Shown piece by piece: positions 2,926 through 59,083 of a stretch of DNA of 64,000 nt. How positions within the stretch are numbered: position 1 is the first letter of the stretch; each line of letters opens with the position of its first letter. The notes under the pieces were generated by a model. It worked only from the letters and a program-made list of their open reading frames with translations, did not search any database and was not told the DNA's origin. This stretch comes from Lentimicrobiaceae bacterium (GTDB lineage Bacteria; Bacteroidota; Bacteroidia; Bacteroidales; UBA4417): contig JAQVEX010000001.1 of assembly GCA_028697555.1 (NCBI GenBank), positions 4,585-68,584 on the forward strand, read 5' to 3'. Position numbers and translations under genes: made by a program.

Positions 2926-3693
2926 TTAGTAATAATAATATTCGGTTTTTGTTTTCGGATAAAATGGCAACATCCAGCCGACTTTAATGCTGGTTAGCAT
3001 GTCGAAACGCTTTTCGTCGGCGTATTTCATATCATTGAAATAGTAAACGCGTCTGTTTTGTGTGTACGCCTGAACCGATTCAATGCCGATTTTAAAATTT
3101 ATACGTGTATTATCTCCCTGATAATGAAAACCAACATATTCAACGACTGCCGGTCCGTTGCATAAATGGTCGTAGCCCTTTTTGTAATCGCCGTCAAGTT
3201 GCGGAACGTTGTTGTTTGGTACGTCAATTCTGATTTTATGCTGCATAAAACCTGCTCCAATTTGAAACATAATACCCGAATTCGGATTAATTTTCGGTAT
3301 CGGCACAAGTTTGCCTGCTTTTACGAATGCTGTAAATCCCCTTTGTGTAAGCATAATGTTGGACAAGGTTCCGAGCATATCTATTACGCCGTCGGGAGTG
3401 GATATACCGCTTAAAATCGAGTCGGGATGATTGATTTTATCTTTGAAAATAAAATTTCCTTCCAACTCTAAATTCCACCCTGTAGCCGATTTAAATAAAA
3501 ACGAACCGCCAATTTGGTGCGAAGGACCAAAACGCTCTGAAAGATCACCCGAAGGGAAACCGAAACCGTAATGAACGGACAAAACGTTTATGTTCATTGA
3601 GGTATCTATTAATTTGACATGTGACCCTCGCTGCGAATATGAGTTAAATGAAATAAGAATAGCAACAAGTACCAATAGTAAGGTTTTATTCAT
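2926..3693 (-). CDS. hypothetical outer-membrane beta-barrel-like protein with signal peptide
   Basis: ORF 2926..3759. Likely start is the internal ATG at 3693..3691 (MNKTLLLVLVAILISFNSYSQ signal). Alternating aromatic/glycine pattern and C-terminal aromatic residues. No family recognised. Confidence 0.5.
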   Translation of the reverse strand: MNKTLLLVLVAILISFNSYSQRGSHVKLIDTSMNINVLSVHYGFGFPSGDLSERFGPSHQIGGSFLFKSATGWNLELEGNFIFKDKINHPDSILSGISTPDGVIDMLGTLSNIMLTQRGFTAFVKAGKLVPIPKINPNSGIMFQIGAGFMQHKIRIDVPNNNVPQLDGDYKKGYDHLCNGPAVVEYVGFHYQGDNTRINFKIGIESVQAYTQNRRVYYFNDMKYADEKRFDMLTSIKVGWMLPFYPKTKTEYYYY

Positions 3694-3810: not shown

Positions 3811-3922
3811 GGTGGTTGGTGATTGGTGGAGAGTGGAGAGTGGTGAGTGATGAGTGATGAGTGGTAATCGGTGTTTAGAGGTTGAGTTTCGTGCTTTTGC
3901 ACCCTTCACCCTTCACCCACCA
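3811..3922. repeat. heptamer array, 16 units (G-rich arm then C-rich arm)
   Basis: GGTGGTT GGTGATT GGTGGAG AGTGGAG AGTGGTG AGTGATG AGTGATG AGTGGTA ATCGGTG TTTAGAG GTTGAGT TTCGTGC TTTTGCA CCCTTCA CCCTTCA CCCACCA. Confidence 0.8.
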
Positions 3923-5184: not shown

Positions 5185-5964
5185 GTGGATTTGTTTTTCA
5201 GAAAATACGGCAGCGGACAAAATATTATTATTTTGCACGGATTGTTCGGTCAGAGCGACAACTGGATTCCCGTAGCCCGACTTTTGGAAAAGAACTTTAC
5301 AGTCTGGTTGCCCGATTTAAGAAATCACGGACAATCGCCGCACAGCGACGAGTTTAACTATTCAGTTATTGCTCACGATGTTTGCCAATTTGTTTCAAAA
5401 CATAATATCACCGACTTTGTAATTGTAGGTCATTCTATGGGAGGCAAGGCAGCACTTAAAATTTCTGCCGATAATATTTGTCCTGTCAAAGCTCAAATTA
5501 TTATCGATATTGCTCCCAAGCAATACCAAGTGTCTGAATATCATTTGAATATACTCAAATGTATGCAAAATTTGGATTTAGATGAACTGAAATATATCAG
5601 TAATGTTGAAAAAGAGCTGAAACGCCTGCAATTCGACGACTTTACAATTAATTTGATAATCAAGAATTTGAAGTATGTCGATAAGAAATTAGTCTTTAAG
5701 CTGGACGTAGAAAGCATTTACAACAATATTTCCAATATTACGGCTCCCATTATTGCAAATAAGCCAATAGAAACCAAAACACTGTTTATAAAAGCCGATG
5801 AATCGGATTATATAAAAGCTGAGGATTTTGCTTTAATAAAAGAAAGCTACGTAAATGCCGAGTTGCGTATCATAGCTTCGTCTGACCATTATGTTCATGT
5901 TAGGAAACCGGTAGAGTTGAGCAGTTTAATAAGTGAGTGGTTTATGGTGGAAATGAATAATTAA
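5185..5964 (+). CDS. alpha/beta-fold hydrolase (esterase YbfF-like)
   Basis: 259 aa. HGLFG oxyanion region, GHSMGG nucleophile elbow, C-terminal SDHYVH catalytic His. GTG start as given in the ORF track. Confidence 0.75.
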   Translation: MDLFFRKYGSGQNIIILHGLFGQSDNWIPVARLLEKNFTVWLPDLRNHGQSPHSDEFNYSVIAHDVCQFVSKHNITDFVIVGHSMGGKAALKISADNICPVKAQIIIDIAPKQYQVSEYHLNILKCMQNLDLDELKYISNVEKELKRLQFDDFTINLIIKNLKYVDKKLVFKLDVESIYNNISNITAPIIANKPIETKTLFIKADESDYIKAEDFALIKESYVNAELRIIASSDHYVHVRKPVELSSLISEWFMVEMNN

Positions 5965-8147: not shown

Positions 8148-10736
8148 ATGAAAAAATTATTGACGGTTTTATTTGCAATTCTTTCGTTGTCAGCGTATTG
8201 TCAGCTTATTGACGATTTTTCCGATGGCGATTTTACTAACAACCCAACTTGGGTAGGCGATGTTGATGCGTTTACTGTAAATACTTCGTATCAGTTGCAA
8301 CTAAACAGTAGCGGCTCGGATATATCGGCATTGTGTACTTCTATTCAAGTCCCGACGGAAGTGGAGTGGTCATTTTGGGTAAAATTACCTTTTTCTCCTT
8401 CGAGCAACAATAATGCAAGGGTTTATTTAATAGCCGATAACAGCGACTTAAAACAAGATTTAAACGGCTTTTATATTCAGCTTGGCGAATCCGGTTCCAA
8501 CGATGCTATAGAACTAGTCAAGCAAAGCGGAAGTCAGCATACGGTTATTTGTCGCGGTCAAGATGGAGCCATAGCTTCGTCGTTTACGGCACGCATAAAA
8601 GTTACTCGCACCGACGATGGATTGTGGTCGATATATAGCGATATGAGCGGAAATGAAAACTACATTTTGCAAGCTACCGGCAACGACAATACGCCTATTG
8701 TAGGACAATACATGGGAGTTTATTGCAAATACACGACTTCCAACAGCAATAAGTTTTATTTCGACGATTTTTGTGCAGGTGCTATACAATACGACACCAC
8801 TCCGCCGCAAGTGCTGTCGGTTAAGCCAATTTCCGATAATTCAATTGATATTGTGTTCAACGAAGCCGTTACAGATGCTACAGCCGGCAATGCCAATAAC
8901 TACAAGCTTTTGCCTAACAATATTACTCCTTATCAGGTGGAGGTTTTAGACCATGCGACAGTCAGATTAATTTTTAATATTTCCTTTGAAAGCGATTTAA
9001 TTTACAAGGTTCAGATTAAAAATATTTCCGATTTGGTTGGTAATGTAATGCCACAGACGGAAGTTGAATTTGCTTTTCATTCTGTTTCAGCATTCGATGT
9101 TTTGATAAATGAAATAATGGCTGACCCAACGCCTGTTGTTGGCTTGCCCGATGCCGAATATATCGAGTTGTACAATCGCACTGATTTTCCTATTAGTCTT
9201 GATAATTGGAAAATGAAAATAGGAAGATATTATAAAGATATATCTGATTTTACATTAGCACCTAAATCGTACGTTATACTTTGCGATGATGGCTCTGTTC
9301 CGCTTCTATCGGAGTATGGCGATATAATAGATTTTGAAACTTTTTCGTTGGCAAATTCGGGTGCCACGCTCATTTTGTACGACGATTTGGGTAATGTTAT
9401 TCATGCAGTTGAATATACCGACAAATGGTACAACAGCGATTACAAAAAAGACGGAGGTTGGTCTTTGGAATTGATTGACCCGAACAATCCTTGTGCTGCA
9501 CAAAGCAATTGGAGTGCATCGGTTAGCGATTTGGGAGGAACTCCCGGAAGTATAAACTCCATTTATGCATCAAATCCCGATACTACCAACCCGAAAATTT
9601 TGCGTGTAGGTGTTATTGATGAGTTTAATGTAGAAGTTTGGTTTACCGAGACTTGCGACAGCATTCAGATTGCAGATGTAAACAATTATTCAATAGATAA
9701 TAACATAGGCACACCGCTACGAGTTATTTTGTTTCCGCCTTTTTACAACAGAGTGCAATTGGTTTTGCCTACGGCTTTGCAAGCAGGAACTTTGTACAGC
9801 TTACAATGTTCGCAACTGATAAGCGATTGCGTTGGAAATACTTTTGTGCACACTGAGGGTGCAATTTTTGCAATTCCGACTCAAGCAGCCGAAAACGATA
9901 TAGTTATTAATGAATTTTTGTTCAATCCGTTTGCCGGAAGTGTTGATTGGGTCGAGATTTGGAATGTGTCCGAAAAAGTTATCGATTTAAAAACCTTGGT
10001 TTTATCAAATTACGATACTTCTACCAATGCAATTTTGAGTTATCACGAAATATCCGAAAATTCGCTGCTGATGCTGCCGCAACAGTACTATGTGCTTAGT
10101 ACTTCGCAAGAAAAAATTAAACCATACTACACCATACAAAATCCCGATGCTTTTATTGATATGAACTCAATGCCTACCATGAATAATGAAGACGGAACGA
10201 TTGCCTTATGTGCCAAAGGCGGTGGGTTTATTGATAAAGTGGCTTACACTTCCGATATGCACTTTGCTTTGCTAAAAGATGTAAAGGGTGTTTCGTTAGA
10301 ACGTATTAATCCGCAGACATCGTCGAGCCAGAGGAGCAATTGGCATTCGGCAGCAGAAACGGCAGGGTTTGCAACGCCCGGATACATAAATTCGCAATTC
10401 TCTCCGGTTGCGGTATCTGATGCACAATTGGACTTGGAACCCGAAGTGTTTTCGCCCGATAACGACGGCTACAACGATGTGTTGAAAATTTCAGTAAATA
10501 AAATAAAACCAGGAAGCGTAGTAAATATCACCATATTCGATTCTTTCGGTCAGATTGTTAGAAAACTGACTAACAACGAGCTTTCGGGAACATCGGCAGT
10601 GTTTTATTGGGACGGATTAAAAGATAATAACCAAAAAGCAAGTATTGGCAGATATATTGTCTTTGTTGAGGCATATGATTTGGAAGGCAAAGTCGTTAAA
10701 TTGAAAAAGACAACCGTACTTGGGGGAAAGCTGTAA
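8148..10736 (+). CDS. secreted lamin-tail-domain (LTD) protein with C-terminal T9SS type-B-like sorting domain
   Basis: 862 aa with a signal peptide. Two LTD-like segments (VLINEIMADPTP..EYIELYN and IVINEFLFNP..WVEIWN). C-terminal FSPDNDGYNDVLKI motif resembles CHU_C/type-B T9SS domains. Confidence 0.65.
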   Translation: MKKLLTVLFAILSLSAYCQLIDDFSDGDFTNNPTWVGDVDAFTVNTSYQLQLNSSGSDISALCTSIQVPTEVEWSFWVKLPFSPSSNNNARVYLIADNSDLKQDLNGFYIQLGESGSNDAIELVKQSGSQHTVICRGQDGAIASSFTARIKVTRTDDGLWSIYSDMSGNENYILQATGNDNTPIVGQYMGVYCKYTTSNSNKFYFDDFCAGAIQYDTTPPQVLSVKPISDNSIDIVFNEAVTDATAGNANNYKLLPNNITPYQVEVLDHATVRLIFNISFESDLIYKVQIKNISDLVGNVMPQTEVEFAFHSVSAFDVLINEIMADPTPVVGLPDAEYIELYNRTDFPISLDNWKMKIGRYYKDISDFTLAPKSYVILCDDGSVPLLSEYGDIIDFETFSLANSGATLILYDDLGNVIHAVEYTDKWYNSDYKKDGGWSLELIDPNNPCAAQSNWSASVSDLGGTPGSINSIYASNPDTTNPKILRVGVIDEFNVEVWFTETCDSIQIADVNNYSIDNNIGTPLRVILFPPFYNRVQLVLPTALQAGTLYSLQCSQLISDCVGNTFVHTEGAIFAIPTQAAENDIVINEFLFNPFAGSVDWVEIWNVSEKVIDLKTLVLSNYDTSTNAILSYHEISENSLLMLPQQYYVLSTSQEKIKPYYTIQNPDAFIDMNSMPTMNNEDGTIALCAKGGGFIDKVAYTSDMHFALLKDVKGVSLERINPQTSSSQRSNWHSAAETAGFATPGYINSQFSPVAVSDAQLDLEPEVFSPDNDGYNDVLKISVNKIKPGSVVNITIFDSFGQIVRKLTNNELSGTSAVFYWDGLKDNNQKASIGRYIVFVEAYDLEGKVVKLKKTTVLGGKL

Positions 10737-10791
10737 GTTTTTAGGTTAATTTTAATTGATTGTCCTATATGCTATTGGCTGGTGCGTGTTA

Positions 10792-10807
10792 TCCCGAAGT
10801 TTCGGGA
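10792..10807. repeat. core palindrome TCCCGAAGTTTCGGGA
   Basis: Palindromic 16-mer. Related copies at 1330-1345, 17848-17863, 41313-41328, 50392-50407; TTCCGAAATTTCGGAA at 11178-11193. Confidence 0.8.
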
Positions 10808-10808
10808 C

Positions 10809-10857
10809 GGGTTGCGTGGTTCGTGTTACGTGTTGCGTGGTTCGTGGTTCGTGGGAT
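10809..10857. repeat. heptamer array, 7 units
   Basis: GGGTTGC GTGGTTC GTGTTAC GTGTTGC GTGGTTC GTGGTTC GTGGGAT. Confidence 0.85.
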
Positions 10858-10877
10858 TTTCGACTTCCAACAAATTC

Positions 10878-11274
10878 AGCTAACGGCTGTCTTACAGTGA
10901 GGGTTCGGTGCTACGCACCTTGAACGTATGTGCAATTTATTCTATAAATGGTTCGGTGCTAACGCACCTTTTTGGATAACACCTTTTATGGGAAAGATGG
11001 TGGCAGTTTGGTACTGTGCTTATTTTGTTGATAAACGCAGCATCTGTATTTTCGATGGCAAATAACAAAAGCCGTGTAACGGCGTCCCATTTGTAACTGC
11101 AAAACAATAAACTTAAGTTAGGTGCGTAGCACCGAACCATTAAACCCAGTGTGTGAAAATATTTAAACTCGGAATTCTTCCGAAATTTCGGAACGTAAAT
11201 CCCATGCACCCTGCAACCCATCAATGGCTAATGGCTAAAAGCCAAGAGCCAAGAGCCAAGAGCCAAGAGCCAAG
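10878..11274. repeat. 397-bp tandem repeat unit, copy A (about 300 bp unique sequence plus a heptamer tail)
   Basis: Aligns base-for-base with 11275-11670: roughly 20 substitutions plus a 1-nt indel by eye. Contains arms GGTTCGGTGCTACGCACCT (10902-10920), AATGGTTCGGTGCTAACGCACCT (10947-10969), and reverse complement AGGTGCGTAGCACCGAACCATT (11120-11141). Confidence 0.9.
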
Positions 11275-11284
11275 AGCTAACGAC
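11222..11284. repeat. heptamer array, 9 units (tail of copy A)
   Basis: CAATGGC TAATGGC TAAAAGC CAAGAGC x5 TAACGAC. Confidence 0.85.
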
Positions 11285-11670
11285 TATCTTACAGTGAGGG
11301 TTCGGTGCTACGCACCTTGAACGTATGTGCAATTTATTCTATAAATGGTTCGGTGCTACGCACCTTTTTGGACAACACCTTTTATGGGAAAGATTGTGGC
11401 AGTTTGATACTGTGCTTATTTTGCTGATATACGCAGCATCTGTATTTTCGATGGCAATTAACAAAAGCCGTGTAACGGCGTCCCATTTGTAACTACAAAA
11501 CAATAAACTTAAGTTAGGTGCGTAGCACCGAACCATTAAATCCAGTGTGCGAAAATATTTAAACTCGGAATTCTCTCGAAATTTCGGAACTTAAATCCTA
11601 TGCACCCCGCAACCCATCAATGGCTAACGGCTAAAAGCCAACAGCCAACAGCCAAGAGCTAACAGCTAAC
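11275..11670. repeat. 397-bp tandem repeat unit, copy B
   Basis: Arms at 11299-11317, 11344-11365 and reverse complement at 11516-11537. The heptamer tail runs into the hemW 3' end. Confidence 0.9.
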
Positions 11671-11673
11671 AAT
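11618..11673. repeat. heptamer array, 8 units (tail of copy B), overlapping the hemW stop and last 4 codons
   Basis: CAATGGC TAACGGC TAAAAGC CAACAGC CAACAGC CAAGAGC TAACAGC TAACAAT. Unit content differs from the copy A tail. Confidence 0.85.
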
Positions 11674-12792
11674 AAACAAGTCCGATGCTATTTGGTCGGC
11701 GAAAATGCGTTGCGTTTTTGTTAAGGTCAGGTGATTATCTATCTCTGAAAAACATTCGGTTTTGTGTTGTTTTTCAATTTGAGTTATTAAGTAGTTGTAA
11801 TATTTCGAGCCGAATTTATTGCTAATCAGTTGTAAGTCAATTCCTATTGAAGTCCGAAGTGAGGTCATGATGTATTCGTTGAAATTATCGTTTAACGACA
11901 AATTTTCGCATTGAGCCGGAATTTTATTTTCGTTTATGCTCCTTATATATTCGGAAATATTACTTGTATTCCAACATCTGCGATTGTTGTTGAAGGAATG
12001 AGCTGAAGGTCCAATTCCCAAATACGGCGTATATTGCCAATAAGCGGAGTTATGTTTCGACTCAAAATTATCCACAGCATAGTTAGATATTTCGTAGTGA
12101 TTGTACCCTTTTCCTGTCAAAAAATCTTCAATCAAAAAGTATTGCTCTGTACTTGTGTCTTCGTTGGGAGATGCTTTTTTGTTATTTTCGATTTGCCATT
12201 TCAGTTGGGTTTTATCTTCAACAGAAAGCGAATAAGCCGAAATATGAGGAATTTTATTATCGCACATAAAAGCCAAATCGCTGATAAGCATGTTGTTATC
12301 AAGTGTTGGAATGCCGTAGATAAGGTCGATGCTCATGTTGTGGAAGCCGTGTTCCAAAGCACTTAGTATGCTATTGATAGCTTTTTCGCCGCTGTGGTTT
12401 CTGCCCAAATAATTTAAAGTCGCATCGTTTGTCGATTGTATTCCAATGCTCAGGCGGTTTATTCCAACGCTTTTCCACATCAGTAAGTTCTCTTTGCAAA
12501 TATCTTCCGGATTGGATTCCAAAGTAATTTCTTCAACATTACTAATATCGAAATTTTTACTAACGGCGTTGAAAATGCTTTCAATTTGTGATTTATTAAG
12601 CATTGATGGAGTTCCACCGCCAAAATATATAGTTTTTATCGGGTTTTTATCGAAGAAATTTTTTTGCAGATGGATTTCTTTTACAATCGCATCAACGCAT
12701 TCTTGCATTTTGCTTTTGGTGGCTAAGGAAAAGAAATTGCAATAACTGCACTTGCTACGGCAAAAAGGGATATGAACGTAAATTCCGCACAT
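11659..12792 (-). CDS. hemW: radical SAM heme chaperone / coproporphyrinogen III oxidase-like protein
   Basis: 377 aa. CRSKCSYCNF (CxxxCxxC) near the N-terminus, GGGTPS motif, HemN_C-like tail. The last four codons lie inside a heptamer array. Confidence 0.85.
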   Translation of the reverse strand: MCGIYVHIPFCRSKCSYCNFFSLATKSKMQECVDAIVKEIHLQKNFFDKNPIKTIYFGGGTPSMLNKSQIESIFNAVSKNFDISNVEEITLESNPEDICKENLLMWKSVGINRLSIGIQSTNDATLNYLGRNHSGEKAINSILSALEHGFHNMSIDLIYGIPTLDNNMLISDLAFMCDNKIPHISAYSLSVEDKTQLKWQIENNKKASPNEDTSTEQYFLIEDFLTGKGYNHYEISNYAVDNFESKHNSAYWQYTPYLGIGPSAHSFNNNRRCWNTSNISEYIRSINENKIPAQCENLSLNDNFNEYIMTSLRTSIGIDLQLISNKFGSKYYNYLITQIEKQHKTECFSEIDNHLTLTKTQRIFADQIASDLFIVSC

Positions 12793-17549: not shown

Positions 17550-17661
17550 TTTGCAAAAATAAAATATTGGAGTTATTAACGGCTTAACGAGCTGATTTAT
17601 TTTTATTGCTGTAGGATAATACCTTAAAAAAATAGTTCTGCGGCTTATGTTTAATGCCTTT

Positions 17662-17927
17662 GGCTCTTAGCCTTTAGCTTTTGGCTTTTTTGTGGTTGGT
17701 GGTTGGTGATGGGTGATGGATGATGGGTGATGGATGATGGGTGATGGATGATGGGTGATGGGTGATGGGTGATGGGTGATGGATGATGGGTGATGGGTGA
17801 TGGGTGATGGGTGAGTTTTGAGTTATGAGTTAAGAGTCAGGAGTTGATCCCGAATTTTCGGGACGAAACTCTAAACTAGGAACTCGAAACTAACTCGTAC
17901 CCCGCAACTCACAACGCCAACAGCAAT
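17662..17927. repeat. heptamer array, 38 units, including 16 consecutive GGRTGAK units (17704-17815) and the core TCCCGAATTTTCGGGA (17848-17863)
   Basis: GGCTCTT AGCCTTT AGCTTTT GGCTTTT TTGTGGT TGGTGGT TGGTGAT then GGGTGAT/GGATGAT units, then GGGTGAG TTTTGAG TTATGAG TTAAGAG TCAGGAG TTGATCC CGAATTT TCGGGAC GAAACTC TAAACTA GGAACTC GAAACTA ACTCGTA CCCCGCA ACTCACA ACGCCAA CAGCAAT. Confidence 0.9.
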
Positions 17928-17951
17928 TTATTTTATAATATTAGTCTATTT

Positions 17952-20073: not shown

Positions 20074-20199
20074 TTGGCTGTTAGCTTTTAGCCATTAGCT
20101 CTTGGCTCTTGGATATGATTAGCCAACGGCTAACAGCCAAAAGCCAAAGGCTAATTGTTCATTGCTCATTGCTCATTGCTCATTGCCACCACCCACCAC
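20074..20199. repeat. heptamer array, 18 units, ending 3 nt before the stop of the upstream-strand gene
   Basis: TTGGCTG TTAGCTT TTAGCCA TTAGCTC TTGGCTC TTGGATA TGATTAG CCAACGG CTAACAG CCAAAAG CCAAAGG CTAATTG TTCATTG CTCATTG x3 CCACCAC x2. Confidence 0.85.
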
Positions 20200-30909: not shown

Positions 30910-33507
30910 ATGAAAAAAATAACCTTTTTAATATTGATATTAACTTTAATATCGAGTGTAGTGTTTTCTCAGACTACAACCACGTACACATTTAACGATC
31001 TTAACGTTGGACCTTTAAACGGTCAGGATAATTGGGTTTCGGTTAAACATAGTGCCGGTGGCGGTGTCAACGAAGTAGATTATATTGGACCTCAGGGTGT
31101 CGTTACTCCAGACCAATCTTTGGGTGTGTTTTTCAAACATGCCAATACCAATTATGGAGAAGTTGCGACAAGAAAATCTACTTCAAATTTTAATTTCGAC
31201 TTTTCGCAAGGCGGAATCATCCAATTGGAATTGGATTTGAGTAACTGTAACTATTGGGGATATGCATTCGGCTTGGGCTACGATGCCGACCAAAATGGAA
31301 CGCTACTGCCACCAATGATATACGAGGCGGTTTATCCCAACCCAAACCTTCCCACACAAGATGGAGGTATATATTTGGTTCTTACAGCTCACAAGGATGA
31401 TAACGATCCCAGATTTCACTGCGGTATTGTTTTGCCCAACAATACGATGCCTGTCGAGTTTAAACTTCCGGACAGAGAATCATGGATGCGTTTCAGAATC
31501 TTTATAGATTTAGAAGCTAACAACGGTTCCGGAAGTGTTGCTTTGTTCCTTGATAATGGAATTACAGGAGAATTTCAGCCCATACCTGAAATTCAGGGCA
31601 TAGATGCAGGTCTAACACCCGGTTCGGGCGATAGATTTGACCCGAATGTTTGGGATGCGGTATTCTTCTTAAGCAGTAGCCATGGAGGTTTCGACAACTT
31701 TACAGTTACTCAAATTCCGGCAGGATTGCAAACTCAATTTATTAACTTCCCAACAATCCCCGATAAACTAATATCGGCAGAACCTTTTACGGTATCAGCC
31801 ACATGTACATCAGGATTGCCAATATCTTATGAAATTGTTAGCGGACCTGCTACCATCGATGGCGACCTTGTTACTTTGACCGGAGACCCGGGAATTGTTA
31901 GAATTAAAGCTTCACAAGGAGGAAATAGTACGTGGTTAGCTGCTCCCGATGTTATTCAACAGTTTGAAGTTGTTGACCCTTCGGCTTTTGTGCCCGAGAT
32001 AAAAATCAGAAGACCATACGATGGAACCAAGGTATATGCCGAAACACTCGACCCACTACTTATGGTTGTTTCGGTCGATATTGAACACCCCGATGTGATT
32101 CTTGTCGAAAATATGGAATTTAATATTAACGGACAGATAGTAAAATGTAAAAATGCCGGCAATAACTATTTTACAGCGCTTTGGGAACAACCGACGTACG
32201 GAACACACATAGCTAACTTGTCAACTACAATGTCGGGCGACAATACTTACGTTACACAAGCAAGCTTTGAAGTAGTTTCGCAAACAAACAACTATGAAGT
32301 ATTAACTTTTGATGGAAGTTTCCATATTTCACCAACCAACCATACAGTTACTGGCGAATTTGTATTCCCAACGTTTATAGGAGGTTACAACGAAATTAAT
32401 GCATTTTTGGATATGAATTGTGCACCCGGCGGTTGCGACACATACGATAGAGTTGGAAGAGTTAAAGCTAAAAATATACACGGTGATTATGTAGAATTGT
32501 TTAAGTACATCACACCTTTCGGAGTGCCATGTAGCGATGCAGTCGAGCTTACTGATTACTCTTCCGTGCTTCAAGGGTTGGTTGAATTTACTTTTGAAGT
32601 CGTAACATGGAACAGTGGTGGATATTTGCCGGTTTTGAATTTTGAATTTATTAAAGGAACTCCTGAATACAAATATTCTGATGTTGTTGAGATATGGAAT
32701 GGCAGGTTTGATTTCGGCGATTATATCAACCTTCAACCTGTGCCACCAATTCAATGGACTTTCAATCCTAATGCAAAAAAATCATCACTCATAGTAAGCA
32801 CTACCGGACACAATTGGAGTAGCAATACTGCACCAAATTATTCGGTTAATACCGGTAATGCTGCCGAATTTTACGAAGCTACACACCATATTAATATAGA
32901 CGGAATAAAAGAGTTTGTACAGCATTTGTGGCCCCAAAGTGGGACTTGTACACCTAATCCGGCAGGTTGTCAACCTCAAAACGGAACATGGACATTTCCT
33001 CGTGCAGGCTGGTGTCCTGGTTCTATTGCTATGATTTGGAATTGGGATTTAACTCAATTTATTAGCAACGGCTCAATAGATATGGAATACATTTTTGACC
33101 CTGATTACGTCGACCTTTGCCATCCAAATCACCCCGATTGTGTTGACGGAACAAATGGATGTCCAAACTGTGCCGCACCCGACAATCCAATATTGGACGT
33201 TTCTGCTAAAATTGTTACATATAGCAATAATAGTAGCTTATACGTAGGAAATAACGATTATAAGGTTATTGATAACTTAATTTCTTTCAACCTATATCCT
33301 AACCCTGCAAATCAAAAAGTTTTAATTACTGCAGATAATATAGACAAAGTTTTTTCAGCCAATATTATCAATTTCTTAGGTCAAACTGTAAAAACCTTCC
33401 AATTCGTAGGTTCAAAAATTATAGATATTTCAGACCTTCCAAAAGGTATTTACATTGTAAATATTGTAGGACAGAGATCGGCATCGAAGAAACTTGTTGT
33501 TAACTAG
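30910..33507 (+). CDS. multidomain T9SS cargo protein with PNGase F-like catalytic region, paralog 2
   Basis: 865 aa, collinear with paralog 1 and carrying the same PNGase F-like motifs (NCAPGGCDTYDRV, AAEFYEATH, PRAGWCPG). C-terminal YPNPANQKVLI...KGIYIVNI sorting domain. Its stop codon TAG is the first 3 nt of a heptamer array. Confidence 0.7.
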   Translation: MKKITFLILILTLISSVVFSQTTTTYTFNDLNVGPLNGQDNWVSVKHSAGGGVNEVDYIGPQGVVTPDQSLGVFFKHANTNYGEVATRKSTSNFNFDFSQGGIIQLELDLSNCNYWGYAFGLGYDADQNGTLLPPMIYEAVYPNPNLPTQDGGIYLVLTAHKDDNDPRFHCGIVLPNNTMPVEFKLPDRESWMRFRIFIDLEANNGSGSVALFLDNGITGEFQPIPEIQGIDAGLTPGSGDRFDPNVWDAVFFLSSSHGGFDNFTVTQIPAGLQTQFINFPTIPDKLISAEPFTVSATCTSGLPISYEIVSGPATIDGDLVTLTGDPGIVRIKASQGGNSTWLAAPDVIQQFEVVDPSAFVPEIKIRRPYDGTKVYAETLDPLLMVVSVDIEHPDVILVENMEFNINGQIVKCKNAGNNYFTALWEQPTYGTHIANLSTTMSGDNTYVTQASFEVVSQTNNYEVLTFDGSFHISPTNHTVTGEFVFPTFIGGYNEINAFLDMNCAPGGCDTYDRVGRVKAKNIHGDYVELFKYITPFGVPCSDAVELTDYSSVLQGLVEFTFEVVTWNSGGYLPVLNFEFIKGTPEYKYSDVVEIWNGRFDFGDYINLQPVPPIQWTFNPNAKKSSLIVSTTGHNWSSNTAPNYSVNTGNAAEFYEATHHINIDGIKEFVQHLWPQSGTCTPNPAGCQPQNGTWTFPRAGWCPGSIAMIWNWDLTQFISNGSIDMEYIFDPDYVDLCHPNHPDCVDGTNGCPNCAAPDNPILDVSAKIVTYSNNSSLYVGNNDYKVIDNLISFNLYPNPANQKVLITADNIDKVFSANIINFLGQTVKTFQFVGSKIIDISDLPKGIYIVNIVGQRSASKKLVVN

Positions 33508-33581
33508 CCTTTAGCTTTTGGCTTTTAGCCATTGGCTAAGAAAGCTAACAGCTAACAGCTAATAGCTAAAAGCTAATTGAT
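33505..33581. repeat. heptamer array, 11 units forming two reverse-complementary arms; starts on the stop codon of PNGase-like paralog 2
   Basis: TAGCCTT TAGCTTT TGGCTTT TAGCCAT TGGCTAA GAAAGCT AACAGCT AACAGCT AATAGCT AAAAGCT AATTGAT. Confidence 0.85.
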
Positions 33582-40797: not shown

Positions 40798-40857
40798 CTC
40801 TTGGCTTTTAGCCTTTGGCTTTTTGGTTGGTACGTGGTTCGGGTTGCGTGTTGTGAC
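40795..40857. repeat. heptamer array, 9 units, starting on the trmB stop codon
   Basis: TAGCTCT TGGCTTT TAGCCTT TGGCTTT TTGGTTG GTACGTG GTTCGGG TTGCGTG TTGTGAC. Confidence 0.85.
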
Positions 40858-40923
40858 ATTTTCGGTCATTGAGTGCGATATTGAGCGAAGCGAAATATCG
40901 GTGTATCGAAATGCCGAAAATGG
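40855..40923 (+). repeat. conserved nested-hairpin element, copy 2
   Basis: GACATTTTCGGTCATTGAGTGCGATATTGAGCGAAGCGAAATATCGGTGTATCGAAATGCCGAAAATGG. Differs from copy 1 by one deleted C and one G-to-A change. Confidence 0.85.
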
Positions 40924-40995
40924 AGAGTAAATAGTGTTGCGGGGTAGCTGTTGGCTAAAATTTTACTTATTAAAAATCCTTTTTACTCAGAATAT

Positions 40996-41054
40996 GTATA
41001 AAAGAAACGTTAAAAATTTCTGAATCCCTGTAAGAAATTTAGTTTCTTTTATAC
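40996..41054. other. long AT-rich nested hairpin
   Basis: GTATAAAAGAAAC (40996-41008) pairs with GTTTCTTTTATAC (41042-41054). Inner AAATTTCT (41014-41021) pairs with AGAAATTT (41033-41040). Confidence 0.65.
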
Positions 41055-41227
41055 GGTTTTTATTGTCTAAAGGCAATAAAAAATTCCTTGTAAAAAGTGT
41101 CTTTTCTTTTGTTTCGTTTTCTTTGGACAAGCAAAGAAAATGAAAGGAACCAAATAGAAACTGTAAAAGTTTAATGATTGCGGACTTGCCACACGATGCA
41201 ATCGTGCGGCAGCAAAGGGATTAAAAT

Positions 41228-41458
41228 AGCTCTTGGCTTTTAGCCTTTGGCTGTTGGCTGTTACGTGGTGTGTGGTGCGTGGTCGGGTTATCAATTAACA
41301 ATGAGCAATGAGCCCCGAAGTTTCGGGAGAGTACCGTAACTCCCGACTCGTAACTTGTAACTCGTAACTCAATACTTCTACCTTCTGACTTCTAATTTCT
41401 AATTTTATTCTGCTAAAGGCTAACGGCTAAAAGCAAATAGCCAACAGCTAACAGCCAA
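41228..41458. repeat. heptamer array, exactly 33 units, ending 1 nt before the amidohydrolase stop; core CCCCGAAGTTTCGGGA at 41313-41328
   Basis: AGCTCTT GGCTTTT AGCCTTT GGCTGTT GGCTGTT ACGTGGT GTGTGGT GCGTGGT CGGGTTA TCAATTA ACAATGA GCAATGA GCCCCGA AGTTTCG GGAGAGT ACCGTAA CTCCCGA CTCGTAA CTTGTAA CTCGTAA CTCAATA CTTCTAC CTTCTGA CTTCTAA TTTCTAA TTTTATT CTGCTAA AGGCTAA CGGCTAA AAGCAAA TAGCCAA CAGCTAA CAGCCAA. Confidence 0.9.
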
Positions 41459-41459
41459 T

Positions 41460-42647
41460 TTACAAACTTTGCATAATCGCGTACGCCATAAATCCGGCAC
41501 CATTTGCTATAGCTCTTTCGTCGATATCAAAAATAGGGGTGTGTATATTCCTTATTTCTTTCCAATCTGGATTTTTTACACCTAAACGGTAAAAACAAGC
41601 AGGTACAACGTGTGAGTAGTAGGCAAAATCTTCGGCTGTCATTCTTGGCTCAATGTCAACAACATTGTTTTTTCCAAAGTAGCTGATAGCAGCTTTTTTC
41701 ATGTTTTGAGTTAAAGCCTTGTCGTTTAATAAATAAGGGTAACCTTTATCGATAAAGACTTCACACTCGGCGCCCATAGCATTGGCAATATTTTTTGCAA
41801 TATGAGTAATTTTTTCGTGAGCTTCGGCACGCCATTTTTCGTCGAAAGTGCGTATTGTTCCGTCAATTTTAACAATATCGGGTAGAACGTTAGTCCTGCC
41901 TTCGGCGATAAATCTACCAAAACTTAATACTGTAGGAATAGTTGGAGGAGCACATCTGCTAACTACTTGCTGCAGCGCAACTACTATATGCGAAGCCGTC
42001 AAAACCGTATCGGTACTTAGGTTGGGTAAAGCTCCGTGTCCGCCTTTACCTTTTATTGTCAGATAAATTTCATCGGTGCTAGCCATAGCTTTTCCGCTAA
42101 CAAAACCAACCTTTCCTACTTCCAATTCGGGTAAAACGTGTTCGCCGATAATAAATTGCGGAGTTGGATTTGTGAGTACGCCTTCTTCAATCATAGCTTT
42201 TGCTCCACCCGGAAAAGTTTCTTCCGAAGGTTGAAAAATAAATCGTACGGTTCCATTAAATTTATCTTTAAAATTATTGAGAATAAATATCGCACCAAGC
42301 AAGCAAGTCATGTGAACGTCATGTCCGCATGCGTGCATAACACCAGGGTTAATAGAAGCGTAATCAACATTGTTTTTTTCGCTTATGGGTAGTGCATCCA
42401 TGTCGGCTCTAAGTGCAACGGTTTTGCTTTCGGGATTAACACCTTTAATTTCGCCCACTATACCATAACCGCCAATATTACAACTATGCTTTATCTTCCA
42501 TTTAGACAAAACAGAGCTAATAAAATCGGCAGTTTTTTCTTCTTGCTTAGAAAGCTCAGGGTGTTTATGAAGATGTCTTCTGTAACCTATAAGTTCAGTT
42601 TCTATTTTTTCAGAAAGGCTTTTTATTTCATCAATTAAGCTTTGCAT
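41460..42647 (-). CDS. M20-family amidohydrolase (N-acyl-L-amino-acid amidohydrolase/hippuricase-like)
   Basis: ORF 41460..42680. RRHLHKHPELSKQE, ACGHDVH, FQPSEE motifs. Start placed at ATG 42647..42645 (MQSLIDEI), which gives the usual N-terminal length; ATG 42680 is also possible. Confidence 0.8.
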   Translation of the reverse strand: MQSLIDEIKSLSEKIETELIGYRRHLHKHPELSKQEEKTADFISSVLSKWKIKHSCNIGGYGIVGEIKGVNPESKTVALRADMDALPISEKNNVDYASINPGVMHACGHDVHMTCLLGAIFILNNFKDKFNGTVRFIFQPSEETFPGGAKAMIEEGVLTNPTPQFIIGEHVLPELEVGKVGFVSGKAMASTDEIYLTIKGKGGHGALPNLSTDTVLTASHIVVALQQVVSRCAPPTIPTVLSFGRFIAEGRTNVLPDIVKIDGTIRTFDEKWRAEAHEKITHIAKNIANAMGAECEVFIDKGYPYLLNDKALTQNMKKAAISYFGKNNVVDIEPRMTAEDFAYYSHVVPACFYRLGVKNPDWKEIRNIHTPIFDIDERAIANGAGFMAYAIMQSL

Positions 42648-50326: not shown

Positions 50327-50473
50327 GTTTACGGGTTGCGTGTTGCGAGTTGCGGGCAATAAACAATTAACAATTAGTAATTATCAATTATCCCCAAAAC
50401 TTCGGGGTTCATTGCACATTGCTAATTGCTAAAACCACCCATCACCCATCACTCATCACCGATCACTCATAAC
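50327..50473. repeat. heptamer array, 21 units, spanning from the glmS stop to the stop of the convergent gene
   Basis: GTTTACG GGTTGCG TGTTGCG AGTTGCG GGCAATA AACAATT AACAATT AGTAATT ATCAATT ATCCCCA AAACTTC GGGGTTC ATTGCAC ATTGCTA ATTGCTA AAACCAC CCATCAC CCATCAC TCATCAC CGATCAC TCATAAC. Confidence 0.9.
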
Positions 50474-59009: not shown

Positions 59010-59083
59010 TGGAGCGTAAGGGAGTCGAACCCTTGACCTTTAGACTGCCAGTCTAACGCTCTAGCCAACTGAGCTAACGCCCC
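59010..59083 (-). tRNA. tRNA-Ala (anticodon GGC), no encoded CCA
   Basis: Hand-folded reverse complement: GGGGCGT TA GCTC AGTTGGCT AGAGC G TTAGA CTGGCAG TCTAA AGGTC AAGGG TTCGACT CCCTT ACGCTCC A. All four stems pair. G3:U70 alanine identity pair present. TTCGA T-loop. Confidence 0.9.

Follow-up and report, generated by a model that had tools for sequence, protein, structure and literature searches.

What is the 397-bp sequence that stands twice, end to end, between two convergent genes of a Lentimicrobiaceae bacterium, and how did it come to be there? It lies in contig JAQVEX010000001.1 of assembly GCA_028697555.1, within a stretch of 64,000 nucleotides that I analysed as a whole (hereafter, the window), where a 922-nt gap at 10737-11658 hosts the tandem duplication. 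I propose that each unit probably carries a non-autonomous element of the REP/REPIN type, made of two-hairpin modules (doublets), that this element would be handled by a Y1 transposase encoded elsewhere, and that the duplication was a separate event. The doublets form an extragenic repeat family in many Bacteroidota, where they bracket a HUH/Y1 transposase gene at a fixed locus, and the element in the window is an ordinary, locally duplicated member of that family.

A family of hairpin doublets in Bacteroidota

A doublet consists, on one strand, of a hairpin H1, a spacer of ~28 nt, the tag CTACAAAT, 5 nt, and a second hairpin H2. H1 is GGTTC-GGTGC-TAC-GCACC-T, the tag reads C/T-TAC-AAAT (in the window doublets, CTATAAAT or TTACAAAT), and H2 is a 5-bp stem with a loop of 3-4 nt, followed by T. 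The exact 19-mer GGTTCGGTGCTACGCACCT occurs five times in the window (10902+, 11120-, 11299+, 11347+ and 11516-) and not once in 100 shuffles, the chance expectation being 0. In a collection of species-representative genomes it was found in 53 stretches, 50 of them from 18 Bacteroidota assemblies (Paludibacter, other Bacteroidales, Lentimicrobiaceae, Saprospiraceae and Chitinophagales), usually several per genome, as at seven loci each in JAPXLB and OW818663. The other three are lone matches in GC-rich sequence of unrelated bacteria, and viral contigs yielded none.

The loci fetched from these genomes contain 66 doublets by pattern search and 127, in 392 kb, by a covariance model (R1) built from 56 doublets. 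The commonest arrangement is a convergent, abutting pair of doublets of ~157 nt, which is the geometry of a REPIN. Just 1 of the 66 doublets lies inside a stop-free frame of at least 120 codons, compared with 78% of random windows, and the family can thus be called extragenic. In a test that does not presuppose pairing, 68 of 100 CTACAAAT tags were followed by a perfect 5-bp hairpin at exactly +5, with one at most at every other offset; the stems that follow these tags are of at least eight kinds. On a model-based alignment, itself fitted to the covariance model, both sides of four of the five H2 stem pairs have changed and pairing holds in 98% of cells, which none of 500 shuffles reached. Among copy A and copy B of the window and a sister locus (L015), variable columns make up 4 of 159 in the doublets and 20 of 203 in the rest of the unit (Fisher p = 0.005), a difference that would fit either constraint or homogenisation.

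Tandem arrays of doublet units also occur elsewhere, with units of 176 bp x4.1 (L014, in which AGCCAAC heptamers stand in every unit), 88 bp x2 (L046) and 53 bp x9.5 (L024), and with a period of ~53 bp in L029. I considered and rejected a CRISPR-like reading of the L024 array (period ~53), in which the "spacers" are alike and the repeat is the tag-plus-hairpin unit. A full-text literature search for the motif sequences returned one unrelated paper only, and on this limited literature basis the doublet repeats appear to be undescribed.

A Y1 transposase bracketed by the doublets

What gene keeps company with these repeats? At 11 loci found through the repeat, the 19-mers bracket a gene of 153 amino acids (aa), with H1 adjoining the gene on both sides and the doublets facing outward. 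The protein, 153-160 aa long among the relatives of the window organism, is of the HUH/Y1 class and IS200-like. In these relatives it matches PF01797 at 1.7e-24 and NF033573 at 1.5e-16, and a search of solved structures returned only chains of IS200/IS608/ISDra2-type transposases at E <= 0.01. Its motifs (DHIH, WQ and YISNQENHH, read in 17 proteins), its length and its C-terminal tail are those of TnpA_Y1 subclass 1.2, by a motif-level comparison with Table 1 of Quentin et al. (2018; PMC6006769). The Y motif, YISNQENHH, is of the class 1 type and not of class 2 (TnpA_REP), and no tnpB gene is present.

As a guard against ascertainment bias I also ran the search with the protein first, picking five loci for their long contigs alone, and doublets cluster immediately around the Y1 gene in all five. 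These five have lineage-specific, fully compensated stems (GGAGC/GCTCC, GCTCC/GGAGC, GGGGC/GCCCC, GCGGC/GCCGC), and the CTACAAAT tag persists. The association of doublets with the fixed-locus Y1 gene is therefore two-way, via the repeat and via the protein, and covers 16 loci (11 repeat-found and 5 protein-found), all in genomes other than that of the window. Two of them, L064 and L066, have the full layout of pair, gene and pair.

The gene occupies one fixed, syntenic locus in three Paludibacter-type genomes and in 24 contigs from several sister-species assemblies, there is one Y1 locus per genome in the data of the fetched loci, and protein identity tracks host taxonomy, falling from 98% to 55%. 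At E <= 1e-10, a search with the protein yields 2,796 clusters (90% identity), a large family. Members are named "REP element-mobilizing transposase RayT" by JGI, which I take to be an automatic orthology-group label, and "IS200/IS605 family transposase" by NCBI.

Several of these loci deserve separate mention. About 15 tandem doublets with a period of ~104 nt stand directly upstream of the Y1 gene in L063 (8367-9948). In two genomes (L062 5815-14024 and L065 6506-13429) a type I restriction-modification operon houses the gene with its doublet cluster, hsdS being on one side and hsdR on the other. The Y1 genes of L035 (3342-2884, minus strand) and L055 (1938-1480, minus strand) have an in-frame stop codon, and may be pseudogenes or assembly errors.

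Organisation of the element in the window

Over the 64-kb window R1 recovers four doublets at 70-80 bits, the next best match being at 12.9 bits. Each unit of the duplication holds an element of ~250 bp (about 10894-11146 in copy A), which is composed of two inverted, convergent doublets:

10894-10972, plus strand: doublet D1 of copy A (R1, 70.6 bits, E 6e-17), with H1 at 10902-20 (GGTTC GGTGC TAC GCACC T), tag CTATAAAT at 10942-9 and H2 at 10950-69 with a 4-nt loop, TAAC
11067-11146, minus strand: doublet D2 of copy A (R1, 77.5 bits), with H1 at 11120-38, tag TTACAAAT at 11089-96 and H2 GCCGT-TAC-ACGGC at 11071-83
11291-11368, plus strand: doublet D1 of copy B (R1, 75.1 bits), with H1 at 11299-317, tag at 11339-46 and H2 at 11347-65
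11463-11542, minus strand: doublet D2 of copy B (R1, 80.4 bits), with H1 at 11516-34, tag at 11485-92 and the H2 stem-loop at 11467-79
10973-11066 (copy A) and 11369-11462 (copy B), no strand: inter-doublet spacer, 94 nt as against ~38 nt in other copies of the element
11178-11193 (imperfect in copy B, 11574-11589), no strand: small palindrome TTCCGAAATTTCGGAA, by sequence reading

The spacer measures 94 nt rather than ~38 nt because of a 55-nt extra segment, present in the window copy and its orthologues. H2 of D1 in copy B is a perfect 19-mer because one loop A is deleted; the corresponding second direct arm of copy A (10950-10969) has the extra A in its loop, so that only 15 nt pair perfectly.

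The first-pass annotation, made from the letters of the window, had described two direct arms and a downstream arm in competition with one another. The arms exist, and the second direct arm, though loosely described there, was given the right coordinates. The perfect 22-nt inverted repeat is confined to copy B (11344-11365 with 11516-11537) and is not found in copy A, and the three arms are, on a better reading, three hairpin modules out of the four in each unit. The fourth, which it missed, is GCCGT-GTA-ACGGC on the plus strand (11071-11083 and 11467-11479); it serves as H2 in the doublet on the minus strand, where it reads GCCGT-TAC-ACGGC, and its stem is fully compensated. When the core (10894-11146) is folded as single-stranded DNA, the H1/H1' arms pair (-46 kcal/mol, z = -5.5). 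The alternative long-range helices arise because there are three near-identical arms; they are a consequence of how the repeats are arranged, and a designed switch need not be invoked.

The 397-bp unit is not itself the element, and its remaining ~130 nt, a small hairpin with a heptamer array, is local context that was duplicated along with it. The small palindrome TTCCGAAATTTCGGAA belongs to this heptamer-array context and not to the REP-like element, and similar hairpins, of the type CCCGAAnTTTCGGG, centre other heptamer arrays of the window.

The closest comparison is with JAPXLB, a metagenome-assembled genome of Lentimicrobiaceae whose contigs are ~93% identical to the window. Its Y1 gene (L021 2167-2628) stands between a D1-type doublet and D2-type doublets. 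The composite of the window, there with ~38 nt between D1 and D2, is found at other JAPXLB loci, namely L025, L028, L051, and L021 beside the Y1 gene, and a D2-type doublet also occurs in L015, L021, L025, L028 and L051. The earlier description of the unit as MITE-like (resembling a miniature inverted-repeat transposable element) is on the right track as regards the core (~10899-11146), which is dispersed and extragenic, has inverted repeats of 19-22 nt and recurs in L025, L021, L028 and L051. These 19-22-nt repeats are terminal; in an alignment of five copies, the ends show no sign of a target-site duplication. At L021 2821-2890, a second copy of the final ~45 nt of the Y1 gene and of the neighbouring doublet lies 234 nt further downstream; here, too, a doublet cluster contains a local tandem duplication.

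Comparison with known systems

Does this arrangement correspond to anything already described? Subclass 1.2 was characterized by Quentin et al. (2018; PMC6006769) as close to IS200, without properties of an insertion sequence (IS), of low copy number and present in Cyanobacteria and Bacteroidetes, with "no" entered for REP and no terminal IS200-type hairpins. The genes studied here share its motifs (DH[IV]H, WQ, Y---Q--HH), its length of about 148-150 aa, its conserved C-terminal tail and its occurrence in Bacteroidetes, but they consistently have on their flanks hairpin doublets of a kind also dispersed through the genome, where that paper reports no REP. The REP finder used by Quentin et al. 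(2018) looked for GTAG or GTGG within 0-2 nt of a stem of at least 7 bp, and the doublet hairpins would not pass it. Repeats of this kind are not reported for subclass 1.2 in two papers on the classification of these transposases. The "IS200 Group 3" of Bertels et al. (2017; PMC5581495), which has no duplicates and has abundant flanking 16-mers, may be the same lineage.

The REP/BIME-TnpA_REP systems of E. coli and other Proteobacteria (Nunvar 2010; Ton-Hoang 2012; Messing 2012, PMC3479197) also comprise short extragenic multi-copy palindromes, in clusters of alternating orientation and in BIME-like tandem arrays, with a chromosomal HUH/Y1 gene between inverted repeats and with compensatory stem changes between lineages. 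The doublets differ in that no GTAG/GGAG foot adjoins the stem, the CTACAAAT tag standing instead 5 nt 5' of it; the only GTAG nearby lies 9 nt 3' of the hairpin, on the opposite strand. Furthermore, the stem has no more than 5 bp, a two-hairpin doublet on one strand serves as the basic unit, and the protein is of class 1 (IS200-like, Y---Q--HH) rather than class 2 (YIxxNP). With the REPIN-RAYT systems of Pseudomonas and Enterobacteria (Bertels & Rainey 2011, PMC3116915; Bertels 2017, PMC5581495) the doublets share a dispersed inverted pair able to fold as a long hairpin, a transposase gene with such pairs on both sides (L053, L064, L066) and a gene inheritance that looks vertical. Here, however, each half of the pair is itself a two-hairpin doublet and the copy number per genome appears lower. 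Since the GTAG foot and the class 2 protein are both lacking, I do not file the system as a member of REP/REPIN-RAYT, although by analogy it would work like both REP/BIME-TnpA_REP and REPIN-RAYT.

Members of IS200/IS605 and their miniatures (palindrome-associated transposable elements, PATEs) have in common with the doublets a Y1 HUH transposase (PF01797), subterminal hairpins recognised (putatively, in the doublets) as single-stranded DNA and a tetranucleotide at a fixed distance 5' of the hairpin (YTAC here, TTAC in IS608). They differ in having distinct left and right ends, where the flanks here are symmetric and inverted; moreover, multiple identical copies of the gene were not seen here, and tnpB is missing.

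Proposed mechanism and its alternatives

How might such repeats be propagated? By analogy with IS200/IS605 TnpA and REP-RAYT, the hairpins would form on single-stranded DNA and be bound by a Y1 enzyme encoded elsewhere in the genome, which would cut and rejoin near the conserved YTAC tag, and this activity would spread or maintain the repeats. The 397-bp segment would then have been duplicated separately, by unequal recombination or replication slippage between AGCTAACnGCTA-type repeats. The analogy rests on the established biochemistry of IS200/IS605 TnpA and of E. coli TnpA_REP (PMC6006769, PMC3479197).

Several observations weigh against a REP/REPIN-like element. Neither a filled/empty-site pair nor a target-site signature, which would be direct evidence of mobility, was obtained. 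Intermediate relatives for such a comparison are lacking, since beyond the genus the flanking HemW is only 48% identical: a HemW protein search gave one close cluster (94%) and then a drop to 48%, and a metagenome scan with the flanking HemW for orthologous loci or empty sites gave one match, 37% identical. Copy numbers are modest, with ~11-12 exact 19-mers per genome and all four doublets of the 64-kb window at one locus; classical REPs number in the hundreds. The canonical GTAG foot beside a stem of at least 7 bp is absent, and no biochemistry is known for Y1 subclass 1.2. A tblastn search of the 64-kb window for the Y1 gene found none, and I infer its presence in the window organism, where it would be expected between the PAS_4 and Rce1-like genes, from a sister species at ~93% identity; the organism's own gene was not found, the nearest being P0001, P0002 and P0121, all from other samples. 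Finally, copy A, copy B and the sister loci L015 and L073 display mosaic site patterns, described below.

With these points taken into account, a REP/REPIN-like doublet element remains the reading I favour. A broader proposal, in which the CTACAAAT-tagged doublets would be the cognate repeats of Y1 subclass 1.2, and a class 1 lineage would have been domesticated phylum-wide with its own REPIN-like population, apart from the class 2 RAYTs, seems to me evenly balanced between true and false. If true, the protein would have diverged to 55% identity over a range (Bacteroidales, Lentimicrobiaceae, Saprospiraceae and Chitinophagales) in which a 19-nt recognition hairpin stayed identical.

Could the doublets instead be the decayed ends of an active, selfish miniature derived from IS200/IS605 (a PATE or MITE), which moves horizontally and was never domesticated in the REP/RAYT manner? 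The protein matches the IS200 equivalog model NF033573, its only matches among solved structures are IS200/IS608/ISDra2-type transposases, the gene is tightly bracketed by hairpin-bearing ends as in an IS, and the in-frame stops of the L035 and L055 copies suggest decay. However, the gene keeps to a single syntenic locus across species and 24 contigs, its protein identity follows host taxonomy, and the 19-mer is not in viral contigs. Subclass 1.2 has low copy number and no IS properties according to Quentin et al. (PMC6006769), and the flanks are symmetric inverted doublets as opposed to the asymmetric left and right ends of IS200/IS605. I therefore regard a selfish IS derivative as unlikely.

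A second possibility is that, whatever first spread the hairpins, the host uses them at the RNA level as a terminator or RNA-stability element for convergent genes. The element does sit between two converging 3' ends, and T-runs follow all four H2 hairpins (10955-10968 and 11352-11364 on the plus strand, 11083-11071 and 11479-11467 on the minus strand). A terminator scan found six sites in the region against 1.0 expected, four of which are the H2 hairpins, on the appropriate strands facing the incoming genes. Yet the stems are only 5 bp, and the T-run is not a feature of the family, because the bases after H2 vary across it (CTTTT, CTATT, CTGAA, CTTGG). Doublets also flank the Y1 gene and build long arrays, which would be senseless for terminators, and a terminator role is in my judgement improbable. 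A promoter reading of ATTTGTAG, made by eye, was also rejected, as it does not fit the Bacteroides-type promoter consensus TAnnTTTG.

A third possibility, preferred in the first-pass annotation, is a structured non-coding RNA (a riboswitch-like switch or a small RNA) with mutually exclusive helices. It is true that the unit folds far better than shuffled sequence (z = -5.2 and -4.4) and that the minimum-energy and centroid structures choose different arm pairings. Nevertheless, the strong fold is wholly accounted for by the inverted 19-22-nt repeats. With Rfam 15 at gathering thresholds, the whole window gave a single match, a tRNA gene (59010-59083, minus strand) outside the region, and a scan of the region at E <= 10 reached at best 15.9 bits against a 37.3-bit threshold, such sub-threshold matches lying only in the heptamer tails. 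The modules occur on both strands as convergent pairs, in any orientation relative to neighbouring genes; their hairpin and tag are conserved while the intervening sequence is not, and spacers are likewise not conserved between copies. The modules are also linked to a DNA transposase, and a structured RNA is very unlikely.

Locus and history of the duplication

If the doublets are residents of a REP/REPIN-like kind, why do two units stand side by side here? The features of the locus, apart from the doublets already listed, are these:

8148-10736, plus strand: upstream flanking gene, encoding an 862-aa secreted protein with LTD and CHU_C domains
10792-10858, no strand: left-flank context, not duplicated, with palindrome TCCCGAAGTTTCGGGA at 10792-10807 and then a GGTTCGT-type heptamer array
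10878-10889, no strand: left boundary microhomology AGCTAACGGCTG, by sequence reading
10878-11274, no strand: copy A of the duplication (397 bp), from Tandem Repeats Finder; Logan contigs, 100% identical, enter it from the left flank
11196-11277, no strand: tail of copy A, with degenerate heptamers followed by the perfect array AGCCAAG x5.4 (11240-11277)
11275-11286, no strand: junction copy of the microhomology, AGCTAACGACTA, by sequence reading
11275-11671, no strand: copy B of the duplication; Logan contigs enter it from the right flank at 100% identity
11592-11671, no strand: heptamer tail of copy B (CAACAGC, CAAGAGC and TAACAGC units), with a mixed array at 11623-11671
11657-11668, no strand: right copy of the microhomology, AGCTAACAGCTA, by sequence reading
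11659-12792, minus strand: downstream flanking gene, convergent, encoding a 377-aa radical-SAM HemW-like protein

The duplication spans 10878-11671 with a unit of 396/397 bp, and the tail of copy B overlaps the stop codon (11659-11661) of the radical-SAM gene. A tandem duplication of 397 bp at ~95% identity had been claimed by eye, and Tandem Repeats Finder bears this out (10878-11666, period 396, 2.0 copies, 94% matches, score 1424), in agreement with the direct-repeat families numbered D1 and D3 in a repeat search. Logan contigs assembled from independent samples match the window at 100% identity and all break inside the repeat, joining the variants of copy A to the left flank (L058 ends at 11048, L059 at 10919) and those of copy B to the right flank (L001-L003 start at 11459, 11372 and 11511). 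Because independent contigs join each copy's own variants to its own flank, the duplication is real and no assembly artefact.

The unit had also been judged non-coding on a codon argument that holds: over 59 shared codons the copies have 1 synonymous and 6 non-synonymous differences, then a frameshift, and a Pfam search of four open reading frames in the unit gave nothing credible. That the duplication is an artefact or the unit encodes a small protein is scarcely credible: short-read assemblies do break in the region and open reading frames of 65-95 aa are present, but the copies differ at ~5% of positions, each is tied to its own flank at 100% identity in independent samples, and the frames show the substitutions, frameshift and lack of a credible Pfam match just given.

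A single unit occupies the orthologous locus in two sister lineages, L015 (JAPXLB) and L073 (Logan SRR31357142). The junction of the two copies in the window lies in a AGCTAACnGCTA microhomology of the flanking heptamer arrays, and the single unit of L015 has AGCTAACGGCTA on its left and AGCTAAAGGCTA on its right, a near-identical heptamer-array 12-mer on both sides. Near-identical 12-mers flanking a single unit make unequal recombination or replication slippage between AGCTAACnGCTA heptamer-type repeats the most economical mechanism and the most likely cause, as far as the sequence indicates, and the duplication was probably not a transposition but a separate event.

When did it happen? Between 10889 and 11099, copy A has four states in common with L073, and copy B has the alternative states with L015; between 11175 and 11209, copies A and B have five states in common against both L015 and L073. 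These mosaic patterns do not fit a simple model of recent duplication followed by divergence, which I rejected, and the history of the duplication was no simple recent event. The patterns are compatible both with an old duplication that was followed by losses and gene conversion and with later recombination between lineages. The left flank of L073 is entirely different, with ~180 nt of unrelated sequence (L073 5984-6601 compared with window 10737-10877), and three lineages at about 92-94% identity thus have three different structures in one intergenic region. Two statements of the first-pass annotation about the heptamer tails hold, namely their composition (AGCCAAG x5.4 at 11240-11277 and the mixed array at 11623-11671) and that they change faster than the rest of the unit.

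Other repeats in the window

Are the heptamers themselves part of the Y1 system? Arrays of 7-nt units (e.g. GGTGATG x15.7) occur in intergenic regions at 3826-3918, 17660-17930, 20150-20186, 33500-33580, 41210-41460 and 50330-50470, and also at 10792-10858, and are imperfect palindromes around a small CCCGAAnTTTCGGG hairpin. They were found in Lentimicrobiaceae and in one Bacteroidales genome, and are absent from Paludibacter loci that bear doublets; I therefore rejected them as a part of the REP-like system. Intergenic heptamer repeats are also known in cyanobacteria as STRR. The unit tails and many intergenic regions of the window resemble, in being 7-nt arrays, the heptamer direct repeats of Cyanobacteria, Beggiatoaceae and some Bacteroidetes (MacGregor 2015, PMC4679880), but their heptamers are of other sequences and form lineage-specific arrays, imperfectly palindromic about a small hairpin.

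The window also has a second dispersed repeat, ~67 nt long and dyad-symmetric (CATTTTCGG...CCGAAAATG), at 1354-1420 and 40856-40921; it recurs in L028 at 3468-3534 and in L042 at 5577-5648, and the copies of the window and of the sister genome, at sites that are not syntenic, are 97% identical. A third such segment, ~264 nt long (85% identity), links window 40956-41219 with L028 4117-4399, and sits in a 660-nt intergenic region that also bears heptamer arrays.

Significance

The textbook example of a transposase that has turned, with its miniature repeats, into a long-term, vertically inherited resident of a genome is provided by REP/RAYT and REPIN systems, which are known almost entirely from Proteobacteria and from class 2 Y1 proteins. 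The family to which the window element belongs shows a REP/RAYT-like organisation for an IS200-like class 1 subclass that had been surveyed as free of REPs. If confirmed, subclass 1.2, with its 2,796 clusters, would gain a substrate, biochemistry would gain a defined sequence (H1, H2 and the YTAC tag), and the origin of such transposase-repeat systems would gain an independent test case. At a practical level, doublet repeats would explain recurrent assembly breaks and hypervariable intergenic regions in metagenome-assembled genomes of Bacteroidota.

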